DNA of 56,702 nucleotides from Enterobacteria phage 9g. Position numbers and translations under genes: made by a program. Location of the stretch: sequence record NC_024146.1; one strand, 5' to 3'. Position 1 is the stretch's first letter; every line of letters starts with the position of its first letter. Shown one piece after another: positions 28,375 through 56,089 of this stretch. The notes under the pieces were generated by a model that was given only the letters and a program-made list of their open reading frames with translations, did not search any database and was not told the origin of the DNA.

Positions 28375-28662
28375 ATGTTCGTTCTGGCTTTCAGTAGTGC
28401 AATATGGCTAGGTATCAACTGGATCCTTGCAATTATATTAGGTCTTGTGATTTGGTATGTGCCGTTTATGCGTTACGCTGTTATTATTTCGCTTGCATAT
28501 TTAGTTGTTAAACATTTCCTCGTATGGTGTGTATGTAACCCACAAGCTGCAGACATCAAACGTAACAAAGCGAACTTCTTTAGTGTGCTTATTTTAGGTT
28601 CACTGATTGTGTACGCATGGTTGCTCGGTGTGCGGAACTTAGGTTGGTTCACCTTGCCTTAA
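28375..28662 (+). CDS. Small membrane protein (2-3 predicted TM helices)
   Basis: 95 aa, very hydrophobic; ATG at 28375 with GAGGAG upstream; first gene of the plus-strand cluster. Confidence 0.6.
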   Translation: MFVLAFSSAIWLGINWILAIILGLVIWYVPFMRYAVIISLAYLVVKHFLVWCVCNPQAADIKRNKANFFSVLILGSLIVYAWLLGVRNLGWFTLP

Positions 28663-28751
28663 TGTGGTCACTAATTGTTGCGGCCGGCTATGTTAATCAG
28701 CTTGCGTATCCTGTTATAGTTATTCCGTTAACGTTAAAGGGGTTTATATGA
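28662..28751 (+). CDS. Candidate 29-aa hydrophobic peptide
   Basis: Not in the ORF track. MWSLIVAAGYVNQLAYPVIVIPLTLKGFI; its ATG overlaps the upstream stop (TAATG) and its stop overlaps the next ATG. Speculative. Confidence 0.2.
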   Translation: MWSLIVAAGYVNQLAYPVIVIPLTLKGFI

Positions 28752-29113
28752 ACGAGAATATAGTTAAAGCCTGGTCTATCTTACGACCACAGCTGAAAGA
28801 CGATCGCGTCGCTTTTGTTTTATGTCCTGCTAACGAATATCGCCGGAAGCTCGAAGAAGTGTTGCGCGAAGATCCTGAGTTCGTTCGCTGTGTGCAACTG
28901 TCGCGCGAGTCATCTGTGGTACAGTTTGATCGTTTCCACCTTCGTTTGGTTTCTCACCACAGAGCTTCGTATGAAGACACTGTTACTCGTACGAGTGGCT
29001 TCCATTGTGATATTGCAATTCTTGACTGCAAACTGGAAATTGGGCAGAAACAAGAGTTATATAATCTCGCTCGTGAACGTCATGGTGAATTATTAATTGT
29101 GGAAGTGCAATAA
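28748..29113 (+). CDS. Hypothetical protein
   Basis: 121 aa, ATG at 28748 with AAGGGG upstream. Confidence 0.55.
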   Translation: MNENIVKAWSILRPQLKDDRVAFVLCPANEYRRKLEEVLREDPEFVRCVQLSRESSVVQFDRFHLRLVSHHRASYEDTVTRTSGFHCDIAILDCKLEIGQKQELYNLARERHGELLIVEVQ

Positions 29114-29451
29114 TGGCCAAAGATATCGTTATTCCGAAAATGTATTGCCAGCTTCGTGATACTTTATTACAAAGCGGTTGGATTATTAGTCACACCGATG
29201 TAAATGACACTTATATTGTTCTTATACCACCTGACGGAACAATATCCTGCATTTTGCACTACATGCCCGAAGCAAAGACGGTTTATCCGAACGGGTCGTT
29301 CCTGCTTCGTCTGCGCTCCGATACATGGAAGATCCAGACAGATACCTGTGCAATTGACGAGAATACCAGTAAAGAATTTATTCGCAAGCTAACTCAGCTG
29401 AATAAAATCTACCAGCATGTTAAATTTGATTTGTTTAAGGAAGTGTTCTAA
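29113..29451 (+). CDS. Hypothetical protein
   Basis: 112 aa, start overlaps the upstream stop (TAATG). Confidence 0.55.
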   Translation: MAKDIVIPKMYCQLRDTLLQSGWIISHTDVNDTYIVLIPPDGTISCILHYMPEAKTVYPNGSFLLRLRSDTWKIQTDTCAIDENTSKEFIRKLTQLNKIYQHVKFDLFKEVF

Positions 29452-29891
29452 TGATTACTATCAACGATCCAATCAAGCATAAAACTCAGCAAAGTATAAT
29501 GGCTTGCATTCCCACCTGCCTTGCCATGCTTCTTGACAAAGACCCTAAGCAGGTATATGACGAGTTCACGAAGGATTATATTCGTGGTTTTACTGACGTG
29601 TCGAACTATCTGTATAAGCACGGTGTCTTTGCGCAGCCGCATATCACTGCCGGTATGCACCAGATCCGACCTGGGCGCTTGTATCTTGCGACTGTACCCT
29701 CTTTGCAGTTACCTGGACTTTTCCATCAGATCATTATTGACGCTCGCTTCGGTGATGTTAAGGTATACGACCCATGTAAAGGTCTGCAAGGGAAACAATA
29801 CTATTCCTATGACCACGTTGCAGAGGGTAATGATCTGGCGTATCCTCTGCGGTCTTTCCTGATTGATTACGAAATTATATTACCGGAGTGA
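29451..29891 (+). CDS. Putative papain-like cysteine peptidase (C39-like)
   Basis: 146 aa. N-terminal QQSIMACIPTCLAMLL resembles the C39 Gln/Cys motif (Q...C..CLAM); downstream YDHVAEGND could supply the His/Asp. Call is from motif pattern only. Confidence 0.4.
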   Translation: MITINDPIKHKTQQSIMACIPTCLAMLLDKDPKQVYDEFTKDYIRGFTDVSNYLYKHGVFAQPHITAGMHQIRPGRLYLATVPSLQLPGLFHQIIIDARFGDVKVYDPCKGLQGKQYYSYDHVAEGNDLAYPLRSFLIDYEIILPE

Positions 29892-29894
29892 TTC

Positions 29895-30248
29895 ATGAGC
29901 TTGCAACGTTTTGACAATGCAGAACTCGCGTGTGAATTTGCAAAGCGCAAGTTCGCAAAAACAGGTACGCCGCGATGCGTACACGCGGCTATTGGGCAAA
30001 ATGGGGCAAAGTATTGGTACGTCGGTACAGTAGCTCAGATCAAGCGAAGATTCGCGACTACGCCCGAAATGCGCCGGCTTGGGTCCCCTACACTTATGCG
30101 AAACAGGCAGTTGGATAAAGAGGAAATTTATCAATTTCTTAGGAATTACACTGGTAAGGAGAATAGATTTCAGGTTGCAGCGAAAGAGTTTAATATCGGT
30201 CTTTCCACTGCTTATAAAATTTATCACATGTATGGGCGTTTAATATGA
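29895..30248 (+). CDS. Putative DNA-binding protein (C-terminal HTH-like)
   Basis: 117 aa, GGAG upstream; C-terminal FQVAAKEFNIGLSTAYKIY is HTH-like. Confidence 0.5.
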   Translation: MSLQRFDNAELACEFAKRKFAKTGTPRCVHAAIGQNGAKYWYVGTVAQIKRRFATTPEMRRLGSPTLMRNRQLDKEEIYQFLRNYTGKENRFQVAAKEFNIGLSTAYKIYHMYGRLI

Positions 30249-30460
30249 CTGCAATTGCTTATCGTAATGGTATACTGGCTGTAGATCGTCAGGTTACATG
30301 GGGTAATATTGCAACAACTACAGATAAAGTTCATACTGTCAATATTCCAGGAATTGGGCTTTGTCTTGTCGCAATGTCTGGTAAACTACGTCCTGTAACT
30401 GATATTGTGGATCATCTAAAACTACGGTTCATGGACGTAAAGAACCTTTCTCGGACTTAA
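30245..30460 (+). CDS. Hypothetical protein
   Basis: 71 aa, ATG overlaps the upstream stop (ATGA). Confidence 0.45.
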   Translation: MTAIAYRNGILAVDRQVTWGNIATTTDKVHTVNIPGIGLCLVAMSGKLRPVTDIVDHLKLRFMDVKNLSRT

Positions 30461-30486
30461 ATCCGGATTCCCGTTATGGTATTGCA

Positions 30487-30738
30487 GTGACGCAGGATCT
30501 TGTCGTATATCCTATCTACGGGGATGGTAAATTAGGTCTACCGGACACTAACGAATTTATTGCGGAAGGTAGCGCGTTTGAGTTCTTGATGGGTGCAATG
30601 GCTGGAGGTTGCACCGCCGAAGAGGCTGTACGACTGGCGTGCGTATATTGCGACAGTTGTGGTCAAGGGGTTAAATTCTATGACGTAGCCTACACTCTTA
30701 AAGTGGCGCAGTGTAAAATCGAGGAGAAACCATTTTGA
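30487..30738 (+). CDS. Hypothetical Cys-rich protein
   Basis: 83 aa from a GTG start with no clear SD; contains CVYCDSCGQ. Confidence 0.35.
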   Translation: MTQDLVVYPIYGDGKLGLPDTNEFIAEGSAFEFLMGAMAGGCTAEEAVRLACVYCDSCGQGVKFYDVAYTLKVAQCKIEEKPF

Positions 30739-30926
30739 AGAAACCTAAGACTGGTCTGTTCCTTTGTGTTGGTGGACCTTTTGACGGTAAGCGTATACGC
30801 TTAACAACATCAGATTTGTATCCAAGTTCTTCCGTTTTCTCTGTTGCATCCTATAAAAACGGTGAGAAGGGGAAATATATCTTCAATGATCAAATTCGAA
30901 ACAGTGTAATCTGGAGAACATCGTGA
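30735..30926 (+). CDS. Hypothetical protein
   Basis: 63 aa from a TTG start 8 nt after GAGGAG; overlaps the upstream stop. Confidence 0.35.
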   Translation: MKKPKTGLFLCVGGPFDGKRIRLTTSDLYPSSSVFSVASYKNGEKGKYIFNDQIRNSVIWRTS

Positions 30927-31150
30927 GCGATCCTACAAATACACAATTAGCCGCTGCAAGAGTGTATATGCGCGGAGCTGCCGCTGAGATTGATGCTTTG
31001 CCACAATTTGAAAAGCATGTACAGCAACTTGAACATAAATTTAAGGCTCTTAAAGATCTAGGGGATACGAAAGGTGCTATAGCCTTTCTTCTTGCTATCC
31101 AATACTTGTCTATGGAGGTTGGTGACAAAGTATGTTCCTTAGAAGAATAA
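30923..31150 (+). CDS. Hypothetical protein
   Basis: 75 aa from a GTG start with GGAGA upstream. Confidence 0.4.
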   Translation: MSDPTNTQLAAARVYMRGAAAEIDALPQFEKHVQQLEHKFKALKDLGDTKGAIAFLLAIQYLSMEVGDKVCSLEE

Positions 31151-31632
31151 TTGGTATTATTGCACCTTGGATACTACTTGTCATAATTGTTATTCTAGCC
31201 TACTGGGCTTATGACAATGCCATACAATCAGCTAGAAAGGAGGGTTTCGATGCCGGTGTGTCGTACCAAAAAGAAACTCAGAAAGCGGTTGATTTCGAGG
31301 AGGAGAAACGAAGAGCACATGAGAAAGACACTATCGAACGTCAGTACAGATCTCGTATTGAATCTTTGCTTGCCGATCTTAATAATTATCGCGCTACTAA
31401 TGACAGGTTGCACAACGAAATCGCAACCGTCCGTAAGTACCTCGGTGACGCTACCGGCCCTCAGCCCGACAGCAAGACAACCGCCCAGATCGCCCGTGTG
31501 CTCACCGAACTGTATTCAGAAAGCGTCACAGAATACGGACAAGTGGCAGAAGAGGCTGAAAAGTATCGTCTTGCCGGCGAGCAGTGCGAACTACAGTACG
31601 ATGCAATGCGAAATCCGCATAAAGAACGATGA
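31132..31632 (+). CDS. i-spanin (Rz-like)
   Basis: 166 aa. N-terminal TM helix IIGIIAPWILLVIIVILAYWAY followed by a charged coiled-coil periplasmic domain; lies upstream of endolysin and holin candidates. Confidence 0.65.
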   Translation: MFLRRIIGIIAPWILLVIIVILAYWAYDNAIQSARKEGFDAGVSYQKETQKAVDFEEEKRRAHEKDTIERQYRSRIESLLADLNNYRATNDRLHNEIATVRKYLGDATGPQPDSKTTAQIARVLTELYSESVTEYGQVAEEAEKYRLAGEQCELQYDAMRNPHKER

Positions 31633-31663
31633 TAAACTGCAAAGTCCTTGCCGGATTGCGTAA
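31319..31663 (+). CDS. o-spanin (Rz1-like lipoprotein), overlapping the i-spanin in the +1 frame
   Basis: Internal ATG at 31319 gives MRKTLSNVSTDLVLNLCLPILIIIALLMTGC... with a signal peptide, lipobox-like LMTGC, and a Pro-rich mature region with Cys; extends 31 nt past the i-spanin stop. Confidence 0.55.
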   Translation: MRKTLSNVSTDLVLNLCLPILIIIALLMTGCTTKSQPSVSTSVTLPALSPTARQPPRSPVCSPNCIQKASQNTDKWQKRLKSIVLPASSANYSTMQCEIRIKNDDKLQSPCRIA

Positions 31664-31754
31664 CTAAACGTTCAATCTTAATCGCACATAATTGATTGTG
31701 TGAGTGTGATAATTCCACTATGCTCTATTCGGTTTAACTGAATGGAGCTTTTTT

Positions 31755-32189
31755 ATGACTGTGCAACCACGAGGCATCCGGAATAATAATCCTGGAAATA
31801 TTCGTTGGGGTGATAACTGGAAAGGTCTTGTTCCAGAAGACAAACGAACTGACCGTTCTTTCTGTCAATTTATCGATGTAAAATACGGCATACGCGCGAT
31901 CGCGCGTATTCTACTAAACTACCGGAACCGCGAAGGGATGAAGCGCGTCGGAAATAAAGGGATTGACACTGTACGGGAGATTATTTCGCGCTGGGCTCCA
32001 CCGATTGAAAATAACACTGAAGCCTATATTCAATCCGTGTCTAAGGCTTGTGGTGTTGGTGCAGAACAGCCGATTTCAGTCACCGATGATAAAATCATGC
32101 TTGCGATCGTGAAAGCGATCATTAAACATGAGAACGGTGTGCAACCTTATTCTGATGAAGTTTTGCTCGCGGGTATCCATATGGCATAG
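31755..32189 (+). CDS. Putative endolysin (assigned by position in the lysis cassette)
   Basis: 144 aa, ATG at 31755 with GGAG upstream; lies between the spanins and the holin. Catalytic family not recognised by eye (contains GIRNNNPGNIR). Confidence 0.4.
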   Translation: MTVQPRGIRNNNPGNIRWGDNWKGLVPEDKRTDRSFCQFIDVKYGIRAIARILLNYRNREGMKRVGNKGIDTVREIISRWAPPIENNTEAYIQSVSKACGVGAEQPISVTDDKIMLAIVKAIIKHENGVQPYSDEVLLAGIHMA

Positions 32190-32202
32190 TAAGAGGTTAT
32201 AA

Positions 32203-32511
32203 GTGTCGCCGAATTGGGATTGGAATATAGTTTTTATTCTCACTGCCATTGCGATGGTAGGGGGTTCCCTTGGCTACGCTGCAAGAACCCATGATGCTAA
32301 AGAAAGGTTCAGACTTAGTGTCTTCATTCAAGAGGGTACTTTTTCTGCATTCTTTGGTTTCTTGATAGGTGTAATTAACGTGGAACATGGGGTCCCACTG
32401 GGGCTCAGTGGGGCGTTCATAGGTGTGTTATCTTGGTCAGGTTCAAGAACCATGCTGAAGTTTCTACGGAAAAAGACGGAAGTATGTGACCGAGAAAAGG
32501 AAAGAGGTTGA
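32203..32511 (+). CDS. Holin-like membrane protein
   Basis: 102 aa from GTG after AAGAGG. Three hydrophobic segments (IVFILTAIAMVGGSLGYAA; FSAFFGFLIGVI; LGLSGAFIGVLSW) and a charged C-terminal tail. Confidence 0.55.
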   Translation: MSPNWDWNIVFILTAIAMVGGSLGYAARTHDAKERFRLSVFIQEGTFSAFFGFLIGVINVEHGVPLGLSGAFIGVLSWSGSRTMLKFLRKKTEVCDREKERG

Positions 32512-49017: not shown

Positions 49018-52000
49018 ATGCCACCAGCAATAATTGGAGCTGTAGTTGCTATCGGTGCAGCGGCTGGGGCAGCGGCAGGTATTCTCCCAGCCACTGCCGC
49101 GCTTGTGATTGGTATTGCTGCCAGTGCCGCTGGAGCTCTACTTACAAAAACTCAGAGCTTTAACTTTGACTCCTATACAGCTCAGAGTGAGCGTAAACAG
49201 GTTATTCGTGCTGCTGCTGCATCCCGGACAGTGATTTATGGGACGACTGTATCTAGTGGTGTACTTGTATTTGCAGAAGAAGAACCGGGAGAACAGGATA
49301 CCAATAAACATGGTGAGAACCATGAAAAGCTGACGTTGGTTCTTGCATTGGCAGGCCATCCGCTGACAGGCGTAGGACAAGTGTGGTTAGGTGATGACGC
49401 TATCGAGACTTTTGGTGATAAAGCGAAGTGTATAATACATAATAATCCTACTACCGTTAGTCAGGATATGTTGAATCGTTGCCCATCGTGGAAAAGGGAC
49501 ATGATTGGTAAAGGTATTTGCTGGATGCAATTAAACCTTGTGTTCGATTCTGAAAAATTCCCGTCTGGTCTACCTAACGTTAAATGCCTTAAGAAAGGTC
49601 GTAAGGTATTAGATCCTAGAACTGGTAATATGGTATTTAGCAATAACGCAGCTTTAGTCATTCTGGATTACTTACGAGTGTACTTAAAACGCTCTGATGA
49701 CGCAATTCTTTGGGACCAGTTCAAAGAAGCTGCTAATATCTGTGATGAAAGTGTAAAGAACGCGGACAACACATACGAACCTCGTTACACCATAAATGGT
49801 GAGTTTGATATTGATGAAGCTCCCTCTAAGATTTTGGAGGATATGCTTGACGCTTGTGGTGGCGAGTTAACTTACATTGGCGGTAAACATGGTATTCTTG
49901 TTGGTGCATATTATGGTCCACCTGAATTAACACTGGATACAAGTTGTATTGCTGGTGACATTAAAATCACACCTGAAACAGCTTTCAAAGAACGCACAAA
50001 TACAATCACTGGTACTTATATAGATCCTCTGCAAAATTATCAGGAAGCTGACTTCCCTCCTGTAAGTGTCGCAGAATGGATACAACAAGACGGCCAAGAG
50101 ATCACACAGGACGTAGACTATCGTTTTGTAACAAGCCCATACCAGGCACAACGTCTGTCTAACTTAACATTGAAACGCAAACGTATTGGCCGTTCCATAG
50201 AGATACCATGTAACATGCGTGGGTATCGTTTCCGTCCAGGTATGTACGTTTACGTTGACATTCCTAACATTGGAATGAACAAAGTAGAGATGCGTGTTAT
50301 TAAGTGGCAGTTTGATCCGAAAGGTGGTGTTACTGTAACTGTACGCCAAGACTTCCCGGCCTTATGGGACGATGCAATTGGCAAACCTGTAGAGCGTCCA
50401 GATTTAGTGGATTTGCCTACTGGTGGCGCTATGCAACCTCAGAATTTGCAGTATGAAGTCTTGCAGATCAGCGACGTTGTACAAGGTGTGCTGTCGTGGC
50501 AAAATATAATGGCTGTAGCCTACAACAACGTAGTAATTAAGAAAGATGGTACTACCGTATTGACGGTGCAAGTACCGGGCCAGAGCACGCGGATTACAGG
50601 GCTTATTCGCGGCGCTTATACAGCACATGTGAAAGCTGTAGCGTATACCGGCGCAACAAGTCCAGAAGCGTATCTTGAATTCAATATTCAAGCACCTTCC
50701 GCTCCTACGTCTGTTGAAGTAACGCAAGGCTACTTCGCAGTGACATTGAAACCAAAATCTGCGGATCTAGCGAACGTTAGTACACAATATGATTTCTGGA
50801 CGTCCGGTGAAACAAGATTACCATCCACTGCTGTAGACGTGGTAGAGAGACAAGCCACTCGTGCTGGTATGGGTACAACGTGGACTTCAGAAGGGTTGCT
50901 CAATGACCACACTTATTACTGGTATGTGCGGGCAATTAATGCTTTTGGTTCTTCTGCATTTGTAGAGGTGGCTGCAAGATGCTTCACAGATGCTGCTGGC
51001 CTTATTCCGCAGATTGACACAGAGTTCAAAGGTACTAACACCTATAAAGAACTTATGGCTGAGATTGGAAGCGTCAGCGATGGTGTCAAGAGTTATGTGG
51101 ACGACCAAATTGAAACCTCTGAAGGGCGCTTAACTCAAACAATAGATACAGTGCAACAATCTGTAGTTCTTGTTGACGGTAAAGTGCAGCAACAAGGCGT
51201 CACAATCAATGAACAGGGGCAGTTAATAGATGCTCAGGGTAAGTTGATTCAAACAAACGGCCAACAGATTAATGTGGTCAAAGCTACCGTACAGGAAGTC
51301 AGTAAGTCCGTTGTAGATCTTGAAGGTAACGTTAACGCTCAGTGGGGCGCCAAGATCCAGGTGGATAATAAAGGCCAAAAATACGTTGCCGGTATTCAGT
51401 TAGGTATGGAAGGTTCCGGTGGAGCTATCCAATCTTACTTTATGGTCAACGCCAACAACTTTGCTATCTATAACCCAACTGACAGTACAGCGGATTTAGC
51501 ATTTGCAGTTAAGAACGGTCAAGTGTTCATGAAGGCAACGTTCATTGAGAACGGGTCTATTGATAACGCTAAGATTGGTAACTATATTCAATCTAACAAC
51601 TATGTAGCTGGTTCCGCAGGTTGGAAGTTGAATAAAGCTGGTGACGCTGAATTCAATAACGTAACTGTCAGAGGTGTGGTATATGCTAGTGGCGGTAGAT
51701 TTACTGGTGAGATACAAGCAACAAGCGGTAAGTTCAAAGGAACTGTAGAAGCGCAAAGTTTTATCGGGGACATTGCAAATATGCACACAGGGACGAATGT
51801 GAGTCGGACTAATGATGGATCTTTAGAAAAGGTAATGACTTATACGGATTCATCCAGTTCTGGGCACGCAAGACACGTCTGTGTTATAGCAAACGTTAAA
51901 GGTAATGGTGCGGGAATAATCAATATCAACGGTAGTGAGAGTGGTTCATCCGTGCAAGACACAGAGAGACTTATCATGCATTCTGCGGTTGTGACAGGAC

Positions 52001-52107
52001 CAAACGTGACAGTTCGTATTAAAGTGTCCGCTCAAAATGGCAGGGGTGCGTCCATTTCTTCTCCTACTATCATAGTATCACACGGATCTGGATCATTCAC
52101 AGGTTAA
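49018..52107 (+). CDS. Tail tip/host specificity protein (lambda gpJ-like) with N-terminal gpI-like hydrophobic Gly/Ala-rich segment
   Basis: 1029 aa. YYWYVRAINAFGSSAFVEV and KYVAGIQLGMEGSGG...NNFAIYNP resemble lambda J (YYFYIRSVNTVGKSAFVEA; HYVAGIGLSMED...NRIAFIDP) as remembered. N-terminus begins MPPAIIGAVVAIGAAAGAAAGIL. Confidence 0.85.
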   Translation: MPPAIIGAVVAIGAAAGAAAGILPATAALVIGIAASAAGALLTKTQSFNFDSYTAQSERKQVIRAAAASRTVIYGTTVSSGVLVFAEEEPGEQDTNKHGENHEKLTLVLALAGHPLTGVGQVWLGDDAIETFGDKAKCIIHNNPTTVSQDMLNRCPSWKRDMIGKGICWMQLNLVFDSEKFPSGLPNVKCLKKGRKVLDPRTGNMVFSNNAALVILDYLRVYLKRSDDAILWDQFKEAANICDESVKNADNTYEPRYTINGEFDIDEAPSKILEDMLDACGGELTYIGGKHGILVGAYYGPPELTLDTSCIAGDIKITPETAFKERTNTITGTYIDPLQNYQEADFPPVSVAEWIQQDGQEITQDVDYRFVTSPYQAQRLSNLTLKRKRIGRSIEIPCNMRGYRFRPGMYVYVDIPNIGMNKVEMRVIKWQFDPKGGVTVTVRQDFPALWDDAIGKPVERPDLVDLPTGGAMQPQNLQYEVLQISDVVQGVLSWQNIMAVAYNNVVIKKDGTTVLTVQVPGQSTRITGLIRGAYTAHVKAVAYTGATSPEAYLEFNIQAPSAPTSVEVTQGYFAVTLKPKSADLANVSTQYDFWTSGETRLPSTAVDVVERQATRAGMGTTWTSEGLLNDHTYYWYVRAINAFGSSAFVEVAARCFTDAAGLIPQIDTEFKGTNTYKELMAEIGSVSDGVKSYVDDQIETSEGRLTQTIDTVQQSVVLVDGKVQQQGVTINEQGQLIDAQGKLIQTNGQQINVVKATVQEVSKSVVDLEGNVNAQWGAKIQVDNKGQKYVAGIQLGMEGSGGAIQSYFMVNANNFAIYNPTDSTADLAFAVKNGQVFMKATFIENGSIDNAKIGNYIQSNNYVAGSAGWKLNKAGDAEFNNVTVRGVVYASGGRFTGEIQATSGKFKGTVEAQSFIGDIANMHTGTNVSRTNDGSLEKVMTYTDSSSSGHARHVCVIANVKGNGAGIININGSESGSSVQDTERLIMHSAVVTGPNVTVRIKVSAQNGRGASISSPTIIVSHGSGSFTG

Positions 52108-52110
52108 ACT

Positions 52111-52134
52111 ATTAACCCCTCGAAAGAGGGGTTA
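52111..52134. terminator. Perfect 10-bp palindromic hairpin between convergent genes
   Basis: ttaacccctc GAAA gaggggttaa; sits between the J-like gene stop (52107) and the minus-strand lipoprotein stop (52139). Confidence 0.5.
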
Positions 52135-52138
52135 ATGT

Positions 52139-52372
52139 TTAGTAGTCTATAACACAGTTTGAAGGGCTCCCAATTCTTCGGTATTCGTGAGCAATCTCCT
52201 GGCACCATTGCCCCGTCATTGGGAGCTTTTCGGTATCGTAAATTAAAGAACCGTTATCGTCCCGATCCAATGGTTTTGGGATAACGCCGGAATTCGGTTT
52301 ACCGGTATCTAAGCCATTACCACATGCGGTGAGGGATAAACAAAATGTGAGCATAATCAGAGCGCGTTTCAT
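52139..52372 (-). CDS. Small lipoprotein, candidate Llp/Cor-like superinfection-exclusion factor
   Basis: 77 aa. Signal peptide and lipobox [17 protein letters not shown]; AAGGAG 6 nt upstream; the only minus-strand gene in the structural block, between tip and fibre genes. Confidence 0.65.
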
Positions 52373-52453
52373 TGGGACTCCTTTGTGTTGTTGACAGGGT
52401 TGAATTTCAATATACTTGTTGTGTTGAGTAAGCTAAATAAAGCGAGAAACATT

Positions 52454-55400
52454 ATGGCAATTCGTTTACATGGTATTCTAGTTGATGGATTGAATAAACC
52501 AATCGTCAATGCAAACGTCTTCTTACTTGCACGAAGCAATACTATTGTAGTTCTAGGTGGAAGTAAAGCGGTATTTAAGACTGATTCGCAAGGTGCTTAC
52601 GACGTCACAGTCAACGCCGGGCATTATGTGGTTATCATTGGACCGGAAGGTAAGGAACCGTATAAAGCGGGTGACATTGTAATCTATGCAGATAGCCAGA
52701 ACGGTTCACTTAACGCATATCTTACTAAATGGGCTCCAGAAGAAACTACACCTGAAATACTTCATGAGATAAAGCAACTGGTGGCTAATTCTGAGCAATT
52801 CGCATTGCAGGCGTCTGAATCCGCTGCTAATGCTAAGAAGAGTGAGCTTAACGCGGAGACAAGTAAAAACTCTGCTGCAACGGATGCAGCGTCAGCTCTG
52901 CTATCAAAACAGGAATCTGCCGCTAGTGCGTCTTCCGCATTGCAATCCAAGAACGCTGCGGCTGGTTCTGCTACATCAGCTCAACAATCTCTTACTGCTG
53001 TGCAAGGACTCAAAGTTGAAGTCCAACAATTAAAAACCGACACGCAGCATATTAAAGAAGAGGGCGTCGCTGAAGTAACAGCTCTCAAAAATGCTGCAAC
53101 TACAGCGGCTAACAATGCTAAAGCATCAGAAACTGCATCTGCTAATAATGCGACTTTGGCTGATACTAAAGCAAAGGAAGCGTCTGTAAGTGCAACCACT
53201 GCTGATCAAGCGAAAGTGGCTGCTGAGGCAGCAAAGGACGCATCCGAAGCAAGTGCGGTTGAATCTGCTACTTCTGCTGGTGAATCGCAGACCTCAGCTA
53301 ATGCAGCTAAGGCAAGCGAAACGGTTGCAACACAGAAGGCAGCTTCGGCCTCTACGTCTGAAACTAATGCGGCAGCTTCCGCTCAGACTGCGACTAACAA
53401 AGCTGGTGAGTCTGCCGCTAGTGCTACCGCAGCTAAGGCAAGCGAAACTAATGCTAAGACGTCAGAAACTAATGCTGGTACATCAGCTGGAAGATCTGAG
53501 TCCGCTGCTTTGCGCTCAGAAGCTGCTGCTGAACGTGCGGAAGAGATTGCTGGTGCAATTGGTCTTGAAGATGCGACTTTGACTGTTAAAGGTATCGTTC
53601 GTCTTAGCAATGATACTGACAGCACTGCTGAAGACCTGGCGGCTACACCAAAGGCTGTTAAAACAGTCATGGACGTTGCTAATACTAAAGCTCCGTCAAA
53701 TAGTCCTGTTCTAACTGGTGTACCAACGGCACCAACTCCAGCACCTGAAGTTAATAACAATCAGATTGCTACAACTCAGTTTGTACACCAAATTATAAGC
53801 GCACTTATTGGTGATGCACCAGACGCGTTAAACACTCTGAAAGAGTTAGCTGACGCTCTTGGTGATGATCCGAACTTTGCTACAACGATGACCACACTTA
53901 TTAACAGTAAGTTGGCCAAAGATCAGAACGGTGCTGACATTCCTAATAAGCAACTGTTTATTGATAACGTTGGTTTACGTGAGACTGTTAACTTAGCTCT
54001 CGGTGCATTGCAGAAGAATCAGAACGGTGCGGATATACCGGATAAAGGCGTCTTCCTTAATAACATCAATGCTGCCAGCAAGACGGATATGGCCGCTAAA
54101 CGTGGAATGAAGTTTTCGCGTGTAGATGCACCAGCGGGAGTTGAAGCAGACAAGTTTTATCCTGTGGTCATTCGTCGTTGTTCTGGATTCAACAGTGAAT
54201 TAGCATCAAGGGTAACGATAAGTACAGATTCAAGAATGTCAAGCCATAGGATGAACAACTGTGATTTCAATGGTTTTGTGATGCCTGGTGGATGGACCGA
54301 CCGCGGACGATATGCTTATGGAATGTTCCACGCATATACTGCAAATGAGCGTGCTATTCATTCTATTATGATGGGTGACTCGGATGATGATCTGTGCTCT
54401 GTGTTCTATGTTGAAGGTGAAGCGTTCCCTATCTCTGTATATGTAGAAGAAGGCTTATTTGTTGTTGTACCGTCCGCCGACTATGTTGTCGGACAAACGA
54501 CTTACAAATGGGGTGCTACAGACCCTAGAACAGAATGTGTGGCCGCTAAAACTATACTTGATTTCTGCAATGGTAGAGGATTCTATAGTTCGCACGCACT
54601 CCTCACAAATGCAGATATTAGCGGTGCGAAAATCTACGCCAACGGTGAAATCGTAGCTCGCGGTGAGAATCAAGTTCGTATGATTGGTGGGGACTACGGT
54701 GCATTATGGCGCAATGACGGTGCCATGACCTATCTCTTATTTACCGCTAAAGGTGATCAATACGGTGGTTGGAACGATTTAAGACCATTTATGATTGATA
54801 ACGCTACTGGTGAGTTTACCATCGGCACTAAATTGAACGCCAATCAAGGTGTGAATGGTAATGCGTCAAGTGCTACGAAGTTACAAACAGCGCGTAAAAT
54901 TGGTGGCGCCTCATTCGATGGTACTGCTGACGTCAATCTTCCAGGTGTTAACATTCAGGGTAATCAGAACACAACTGGTAACGCGGCAACTGCCACCAAA
55001 CTACAGACAGCAATAAAAATATCTGGTGTTTCGTTTGATGGTTCTACTGATATCACTTTAACCGCCGGGCATGTAGATGCTTTTGCCAGAAGGGCAACGG
55101 GTACATATTCCGATGCGGATGGTGGCGTTCCCTGGAATTCCGAATCAGGCGCTTACAATGTCACCCGCTCTGCCGACAGCTATATATTGGTTAACTTCTA
55201 TATCGGAGTCGGAAGTTGCCGGACCCTGCAGATGAAGGCGCATCACAGAAATGGAGGTCTGTTCTACCGTTCCTCAAGAGATGGCTACGGTTTCGAAGAA
55301 GATTGGGACCAAATTTACACTAAAAAGAATCCACCTCCGGCTGGTGAAAGTTTACCTGTAGGTGTTCCATTACCGTGGCCTACGGATACACCTCCGTCCG

Positions 55401-56089
55401 GTTATATTGTAATGCAGGGTCAATCCTTCGATAAAGCTGCATACCCGAAACTGGCGGCTGCATACCCAACGGGCGTGCTTCCAGACATGCGTGGTCAAAC
55501 TATCAAAGGTAAACCAGCAAGCGGTCGCGACGTACTTTCTACGGAAGATGACGGTGTGAAGTCACATACTCACACTGCGTCTACTGCATCTGTCGATCTT
55601 GGAAGCAAGACAACTTCCAGCTTTGACTATGGTACTAAGACAAGTTCGAGTTTTGACTATGGCACCAAATCTGCTGCTTCAGCTGGTGCGCATACGCATA
55701 GTCTGAGCGGTTCAACAGGCTCAGCTGGTGCTCATGCCCACACAGGTGGTTTAAGGATGAACAGTGGTGGTTGGGACCAATACGGATCAATAACCGTTCC
55801 GGCAAGTGTATCCACGGTTAAAGGAACCAACCAGCAGGGAGCTGGTTATTGTGCGAAAACAGACAGTCAGGGCAACCACACTCACTCTTTATCTGGTACT
55901 GCTGCTTCGGCTGGAGCTCATACACATAACGTGGCCGTTGGTGCTCATACGCATACTGTAGGTATTGGTGCTCATACCCATACAGTCGCTTTAGGTTCAC
56001 ATAGCCACGGTGTTACAGTTAACGCAACTGGTAACACGGAGAACACCGTTAAGAACGTTGCATTCAACTATATTGTGAGGGCTGCTTAA
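52454..56089 (+). CDS. Side/long tail fibre protein with C-terminal His-rich HxH repeats
   Basis: First ATG at 52454 (GTG at 52385 possible). Ala/Ser-rich helical repeat region; C-terminal [53 protein letters not shown] repeats; a Tfa-like gene follows. Confidence 0.85.

Follow-up and report, generated by a model that had tools for sequence, protein, structure and literature searches.

The 56,702-nucleotide window examined here (Enterobacteria phage 9g, NC_024146.1) carries a short gene on the opposite strand between the stop codon of a J-like tail gene and a long tail fiber gene (Table 1). An initial annotation made from the bare sequence (the first-pass annotation) had singled out this 77-residue ORF for its LSLTAC lipoprotein signal and strong Shine-Dalgarno sequence, and both are indeed present. 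Of all ORFs in the window with 35 amino acids or more, a strict scan for lipoprotein signals returned this one alone; a looser look at the window added, as a second candidate, the o-spanin within the Rz gene. Residue +2 of the lipoprotein is Gly, not Asp. In E. coli, lipoproteins with a residue other than Asp at +2 are sorted by the Lol system to the outer membrane, and the protein is therefore predicted to be targeted there.

The ORF is a real gene under strong purifying selection. Compared pairwise with four equal-length homologues, the gene has a dN/dS of 0.08-0.11 overall and of 0.02-0.09 in its mature part, at dS values of 0.3-1.3. A 25-member alignment of the family shows C17, C57 and C73 to be invariant, with conservation also of the N-terminus and the lipobox, and with G, A, S or T at position +2. 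The family motifs PNSGV, DTEKLPxTGQWC and RRIGSPSNC are all found in the window protein, while the mature N-terminus of the family forms a flexible, Gly/Pro-rich tether of variable length.

That this is the only reverse-strand gene in the structural block, as originally proposed, agrees with the gene order of the relative JenK1, where gp01-gp28 occupy one strand throughout and the sole exception is the gene at the lipoprotein position. Upstream of the terminase, ten plus-strand ORFs in 28375-32511 match PHROG families, 10 out of 10. In the same region, the ORFs at 30245-30460 and 30487-30738 both match PHROG 1040 (HslV-family peptidase), at profile positions 14-71 and 91-170, and look like one gene split by a stop codon or frameshift, or two fragments. 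An assignment of the lipoprotein ORF as an o-spanin was considered and rejected, as the lysis cassette with its Rz gene and embedded lipoprotein lies elsewhere; the only PHROG spanin match of the ORF (E = 0.14) covers just the signal peptide.

Table 1. Coordinates of the lipoprotein locus, its neighbors and the lysis cassette (positions in the window)
Feature	Position	Strand	Remarks
J-like central tail fiber / tail tip protein, 1029 aa	49018-52107	+	From ORF list
HK97-type receptor-binding tip, last ~110 aa of J	51775-52104	+	
Exchanged host-recognition cassette	51771-52453	.	J tip, hairpin, lipoprotein gene, divergent promoter region
GC-rich stem-loop	52104-52142	.	Overlaps stop codons of J and lipoprotein genes; fills 31-nt gap
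Lipoprotein gene	52139-52372	-	ATG ORF, 77-aa precursor; from ORF list
Signal peptide of lipoprotein, codons 1-16	52372-52325	-	
Lipidated Cys17	52324-52322	-	Lipobox LSLTAC
Mature lipoprotein coding part, 61 aa	52324-52142	-	
Shine-Dalgarno AGGAG of lipoprotein gene	52378-52382	-	5 nt before ATG; invariant across five relatives
Putative sigma-70-type promoter of lipoprotein gene	52409-52436	-	Proposed from conservation
Putative -10, TATATT	52414-52409	-	Invariant in five-relative alignment
Putative -35, TTAGCT	52436-52431	-	16-nt spacer to -10
Lateral (side) tail fiber gene	52455-56089	+	Homology to JenK1/PD328; N-terminus MAIRLHG
Rz-like i-spanin	31132-31632	+	Lysis cassette 31132-32511
Presumed o-spanin, embedded out of frame	Within ORF 31211-31663		Lipobox LMTGC near 31400
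Endolysin	31755-32189	+	Lysis cassette
Holin	32203-32511	+	Lysis cassette

The convergent hairpin and the upstream region

The hairpin that the first-pass annotation had placed beside the gene is confirmed by folding. Its core, at 52111-52136, reads ATTAACCCCTC-GAAA-GAGGGGTTAAT, and the structure has a free energy of -21.8 kcal/mol (z = -6.0), with none of 200 shuffled sequences folding as well. A scan for consensus promoters and terminators called neither the hairpin nor a promoter for the lipoprotein gene; the hairpin lacks a long run of T and for this reason escapes recognition as a canonical terminator. At the same junction a GC-rich hairpin of different sequence is found in KurtStettler, CAjan, SeppeHuegi, lambdoid prophages, the mEp phages, JenK1 and PD328, and one is also present after cor of phage T1. 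KurtStettler and the mEp phages have CCCCGC as the stem, a Salmonella prophage has GGTGTGGGGA, JenK1 has TAGGCGCTC, and the hairpin behind T1 cor has GCCCC, so that what is conserved is the position and structure of the hairpin, not its sequence. The junction hairpins are annotated as Rho-independent terminators in the mEp010 and T1 records, and the window hairpin is likely to be a bidirectional transcription terminator for the convergent J and lipoprotein genes.

Upstream of the lipoprotein gene, a near-invariant stretch is common to five relatives and comprises TTGACT, a 16-nt spacer, TATATT and the Shine-Dalgarno sequence. The -35 hexamer reads TTGACT in CAjan, SeppeHuegi and KurtStettler, as against TTAGCT in the window, and the window version of the promoter scores below the scan threshold. 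The promoter and terminator are thus proposed from conservation and folding, not from the consensus scan. Host sigma-70 RNA polymerase would transcribe the gene from this putative promoter of its own, so that expression would not depend on the late operon, which ends at the hairpin, and would be constitutive in lysogens; the same region is also constrained by the divergent fiber gene. For that fiber gene the start is most likely the ATG at 52455, not the mechanically listed GTG at 52385: the match to JenK1 and PD328 sets in again at 52454, a single base ahead of the ATG, and the JenK1 fiber coding sequence begins at the homologous position. With this start, a divergent control region of 82 nt would separate the two genes.

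A host-recognition cassette on a Nonagvirus backbone

The window has the backbone of a Nonagvirus (Queuovirinae), positions 30000-51770 being 96% identical to HdSG1, HdK1 and JenK1. The match to these three phages stops at 51770, within the last 112 codons of J. Local comparison gives 93% identity to JenK1 and 91% to PD328 up to 51770, and 97% and 96%, respectively, from 52454 onward, with no match in between. J outside its tip is 86% identical to JenK1 J, while the tip is 89% identical to that of HK97 J, 88% to KurtStettler (Bas22), 69% to mEp010 J and 92% (101/110, last 110 aa) to J of the prophage in E. coli Nissle 1917. At the nucleotide level, 51512-52540 is 87.9% identical to an E. coli lambdoid prophage (locus L011), and 51512-52119 is 81% identical to HK97, a match whose end falls within the hairpin's left arm. 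These alignments indicate that the J tip, the hairpin, the lipoprotein gene and the promoter region were replaced as one cassette. The best matches to the cassette are in lambdoid E. coli prophages, that of Nissle 1917 included, and several metagenomic contigs of 57-60 kb carry the same Nonagvirus backbone and cassette. Loci of this type, with frequent horizontal exchange and cognate superinfection exclusion genes, were described by Maffei 2021.

Virulent Nonagvirus phages and temperate lambdoid prophages exchange the J tip and the lipoprotein gene jointly, as a cassette of ~680 bp. Such mobility matters for receptor prediction and for the design of phage cocktails, because a resident prophage of this kind may give cells cross-resistance to every LamB phage. 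In HK97, J ends in a tip of the same type (89% across the final 110 aa), and no lipoprotein gene lies between J and stf (locus L005, 4067-4275), which implies that the lipoprotein gene is dispensable.

The relatives closest in backbone, JenK1 (locus L002, 4678-4968) and PD328 (locus L006, 2189-2467), have a different reverse ORF at the lipoprotein site. It encodes 92-96 amino acids with a signal of the signal peptidase I type, a Gly-rich middle and a C-terminal pair of cysteines; the product is a secreted protein rather than a lipoprotein and falls in PHROG 2243 (function unassigned). It is probably an exclusion factor for the receptor of the JenK1/HdK1/HdSG1 cassette.

Relatives of the lipoprotein and the receptor LamB

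The window ORF belongs to phrog_12984, described as 'lipoprotein' (E = 9e-55), and Lpp010 of phage mEp010 matches the same PHROG (E = 1e-26). In BLASTP the ORF is 49% identical to mEp010 gp116 (Lpp010) over the full length (77/82 aa; E = 1e-28). The tblastn match in mEp010 is locus tag mEp010_116, i.e., gp116, which was cloned as pLpp010 (Negrete-Mendez 2025). Altogether, tblastn found homologues in 42 phage records. The copies in Seuratvirus and related Queuovirinae (CAjan, Seurat, GottfriedDienst, KurtStettler, WildeMaa, SeppeHuegi and others) are 79-91% identical; those of EP23, PNS1, Maverick, CS16 and HH3, which are phages of 42-44 kb (Dhillonvirus-sized), are 72-75% identical; and those of mEp010, mEp013, mEp044 and mEp554 are 49-50% identical. 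In a database of 5.8 billion proteins, 27 protein clusters carry homologues, and when 1.84 billion representatives were searched exhaustively by profile, only four clusters at 50% identity came up. The family is therefore narrow, which limits deeper alignment, and its members are all enterobacterial. Searches of Pfam, NCBIfam and PADLOC with the lipoprotein produced signal-peptide noise only.

The gene lies directly after J in convergent orientation, with the hairpin between, in mEp010, KurtStettler, CAjan, SeppeHuegi, lambdoid prophages and Nissle 1917, a placement that spans Queuovirinae, Dhillonvirus-sized phages, mEpimmI phages and the lambdoid prophages of both E. coli and Salmonella. Two outlying members were seen. 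P0016, on 29 E. coli contigs, is a variant with an altered C-terminus after residue 54 and is probably frameshifted; P0025 (locus L014, 3293-3511; locus L015, 2212-2430) has no canonical lipobox and no adjoining J gene.

Lpp010 has been studied directly. When expressed from a plasmid it excluded four phages that depend on LamB, namely mEp010, mEp044, mEp554 and lambda (Negrete-Mendez 2025, PMC11893012), but it did not exclude mEp013, which is itself LamB-dependent, nor phages that use OmpA (PMC11893012). Exclusion of mEp021 and mEp515, which depend on OmpA, was seen with another lipoprotein, Lpp021 (PMC11893012). Keio mutants served to show that the four mEp phages need LamB. Lpp010 and the window protein share the lipobox, the three cysteines and the motifs, and their genes share the junction hairpin, a tail fiber gene as the next gene and an HK97-type J tip. 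Relative to Lpp010, a 'type-C' lipoprotein of mEpimmI phages, the window protein has a tether shorter by 5 residues and a sequence that is 51% different, and its carrier is a virulent Nonagvirus whereas that of Lpp010 is temperate.

Association with LamB extends beyond the mEp phages. Among the 25 small siphoviruses Bas01-25 of the BASEL collection, LamB is the terminal receptor of Bas21-24 only (S5 table of Maffei 2021). These four are exactly the BASEL phages in which tblastn finds the lipoprotein gene (4/4 versus 0/21), a distribution with a chance of 1 in 12650 if the phages were independent; they are not fully so, all four carriers being Seuratvirus. Their copies occupy the same position as the window gene and are 83-91% identical to it in amino acids (91% for Bas23); the window backbone is Nonagvirus as against the Seuratvirus of Bas21-24, and the published relatives with a Nonagvirus backbone have a different cassette. 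The gene is absent from Bas25, a Seuratvirus that uses LptD, and no BASEL carrier of the family uses FhuA. The 2025 extension of the collection holds no LamB phages that break the association. Similarly, the four LamB-dependent mEp phages carry the gene and the two OmpA-dependent ones do not.

By sequence, the window J tip is of a type shown to need LamB, namely that of KurtStettler (lamB-dependent, with complementation) and mEp010 (lamB-dependent). Lipoproteins that are ~90% identical accompany J tips that are only ~27% identical, both LamB-dependent: HK97-type tips occur in the window, KurtStettler, HK97 and mEp010, and CAjan-type tips in CAjan, SeppeHuegi, WildeMaa and GottfriedDienst. Against the tip of the window, the one paired with the CAjan-type Seuratvirus copies thus reaches only about 27% identity. 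A third type of J tip accompanies the gene in a Salmonella prophage, and lambda, which Lpp010 excludes, has an unrelated tip. In these comparisons the family tracks the receptor, LamB, and not the sequence of the J tip. As the lipoprotein is much better conserved than the phage proteins with which it travels, and tracks the receptor, it most plausibly contacts a conserved host surface. The first-pass annotation had suggested that the protein blocks the receptor recognized by the adjacent J-like or fiber protein. The first of these alternatives is the one that the comparisons favor: there is little doubt that the receptor concerned is LamB, to which the J tip binds, and not the target of the lateral fiber.

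The same data bear on whether the gene could simply be a moron with a role in host fitness unrelated to receptors, such as Bor-like serum resistance or Lom-like adhesion, inserted at a moron-prone site. The site after J of lambda holds lom, the gene has a putative promoter and terminator of its own in the manner of morons, and annotation of the family goes no further than 'lipoprotein'. Against these points stand the strong conservation of the gene in strictly virulent Queuovirinae, its co-occurrence with LamB specificity and replacement when the tip changes, and the direct exclusion phenotype of the homologue Lpp010; a purely host-directed function is thus very improbable. HK97 gp15 is a moron that reportedly does mediate exclusion, as an inner-membrane protein that blocks DNA entry of related phages. 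It resembles the window gene in its location within the tail gene block and in the J tip type of its phage, but it is an inner-membrane protein rather than a lipoprotein and is unrelated in sequence.

The original proposal was of an exclusion factor like Llp of T5 or Cor of phi80 and N15. Direct homology with either was examined and rejected. In hhalign only residues 1-23 align, that is, the signal peptide and lipobox; T5 Llp (its sequence confirmed against PDB 8A60 chain B) and T1 Cor both match phrog_1119, to which the window ORF has no match at E ≤ 1; and a profile search of the PDB with the window family did not retrieve Llp. Spacing of the cysteines differs as well, with the second and third lying 40 and 56 residues after the lipid-bearing cysteine in the window protein and about 9-10 and 56-57 residues after it in Llp and Cor. 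What stands of the proposal is its functional logic, through the homology to Lpp010, the co-occurrence with LamB dependence and the match in synteny and orientation to T1 cor, which lies on the opposite strand just after a J-linked receptor-binding locus and ends at a bidirectional terminator. Cor of T1, phi80, N15 and mEp167 is, like the window protein, a small outer-membrane lipoprotein, although it excludes FhuA-dependent phages. T5 Llp (PDB 8A60, 7QJF) likewise has a 77-residue precursor and a 61-residue mature protein, and the two have in common outer-membrane lipidation, a single disulfide (predicted in the window protein), a location next to a receptor-binding gene and expression signals of their own. 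Llp, however, targets FhuA, a TonB-dependent transporter, by way of its plug, and LamB, the presumed target here, is plugless. The overall role of the window protein is most likely that of a LamB-directed counterpart of Llp.

Much of this picture has a published basis: the type of locus was described by Maffei 2021, exclusion lipoproteins for LamB phages such as Bas23 were predicted by van den Berg 2022, and the phenotype of a homologue was reported by Negrete-Mendez 2025. A literature search on the Bas21-24 lipoproteins and on Lpp010 found nothing later beyond these three papers.

Possible modes of LamB exclusion

The reading we favor, at a probability of roughly 0.7, is that the ORF encodes an outer-membrane lipoprotein that makes the infected cell or lysogen refractory to LamB phages and that travels with the LamB-binding J tip. 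The precursor would be processed by Sec, Lgt, LspA and Lnt and, as residue +2 is Gly, delivered by Lol to the inner leaflet of the outer membrane, with DsbA forming a disulfide between Cys57 and Cys73. A folded part of ~45 residues, held on the Gly/Pro-rich tether, would then bind LamB from the periplasmic side, and LamB so bound would be unusable for J-mediated irreversible adsorption. For a virulent Nonagvirus the benefit would be that superinfection is prevented in the latent period and that progeny are not lost on debris; protection of progeny from adsorption to debris has been argued for T5 Llp (van den Berg 2022).

How binding might disable LamB is a separate matter. It was pointed out that LamB has no plug and no known allostery and that lipoproteins of this kind might be surface-exposed (van den Berg 2022); the mechanism of Llp is therefore not transferable as it stands. 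One tentative proposal, to which we give somewhat less than an even chance, is that a mini-domain stabilized by the disulfide enters the periplasmic mouth of LamB and re-orders the inward-folded loops, such that diverse J tips cannot trigger, or else that the tether is threaded through the porin. If this is true, the family would represent a second structural class of receptor-disabling phage lipoproteins. AlphaFold2 models of the full precursor (25 sequences; pLDDT 56) and of the mature domain (23 sequences; pLDDT 51) are of low confidence, and neither lends structural support to any binding mode. The family nonetheless offers a clean test case for how a small lipoprotein could disable a porin without a plug or known allostery.

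Action from outside the cell is another possibility, in which a surface-exposed lipoprotein masks the extracellular loops of LamB, or its tether threads through the porin. Comparable cases are TraT, for OmpA phages, and RcsF, which threads through OmpA, OmpC or OmpF. The flexible Gly/Pro-rich tether of variable length at the mature N-terminus would suit such a topology, and van den Berg 2022 considered surface exposure for lipoproteins directed at receptors that are not TonB-dependent transporters. Yet the mature domain, with its dN/dS of 0.02-0.09, is far more conserved than the J tips, which presumably diversified in step with LamB's variable external loops, and an external competitor would be expected to vary likewise. 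The protein has no surface-export signal, and Llp, the sole solved precedent, is periplasmic. We accordingly regard masking from outside as unlikely, though less so than a role in host fitness.

Binding of LamB from the periplasm, the preferred reading, has to accommodate the behavior of mEp013. As this phage escapes Lpp010 though it is LamB-dependent, exclusion cannot amount to simple loss of LamB; and as mEp044 and mEp554, which are excluded, have J tips 74-76% identical to that of mEp013, the block depends on the tip allele. mEp013 has its own copy of the lipoprotein gene (locus L016, 1529-1777), in which Lys2 in the n-region of the signal peptide is replaced by Gly.

A further case is that of the probiotic strain Nissle 1917. 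It carries a copy of the gene (WP_021567253.1; NZ_CP022686.1, 430269-430502; locus L022, 6001-6234) that is identical at 69/77 residues and lies convergent after the prophage J. Nissle is fully resistant to lambda; its cloned repressor gene (pr) explains only about 200-fold of this, and an 'unidentified factor' in the prophage was invoked (Bury et al. 2018). Lambda binds to Nissle 1917 through LamB, slowly and without infection (Bury et al. 2018), which means that adsorption is not fully blocked, if the Nissle copy is expressed.

Both cases enter into the question of whether exclusion might occur after adsorption, with J-LamB binding intact and with tail-tip opening, tape-measure insertion or passage of DNA blocked instead. 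Ltp of the Streptococcus phage TP-J34 is the comparison for exclusion of this kind. Adsorption of lambda without infection to a strain with a 90% identical copy, the escape of mEp013 despite its need for LamB, and the lack of a LamB plug that might relay a periplasmic signal all fit such a step, and interference with DNA ejection is listed as an option by the authors of PMC11893012. The family is, on the other hand, 50-90% identical across phages with unrelated tape-measure and tail-tip proteins, and Lpp010 excludes lambda too, so that LamB is the only common denominator seen; moreover, pr accounts for part of the Nissle resistance, in which the role of the Nissle copy is putative. A post-adsorption block is improbable on balance, if somewhat less so than masking from outside, and we continue to favor exclusion through LamB itself. 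The gene is present in 34 of 5426 complete E. coli genomes, and the Nissle copy could be the prophage factor behind the lambda resistance. In a probiotic whose full resistance is only partly explained, this is a lead of residual interest.
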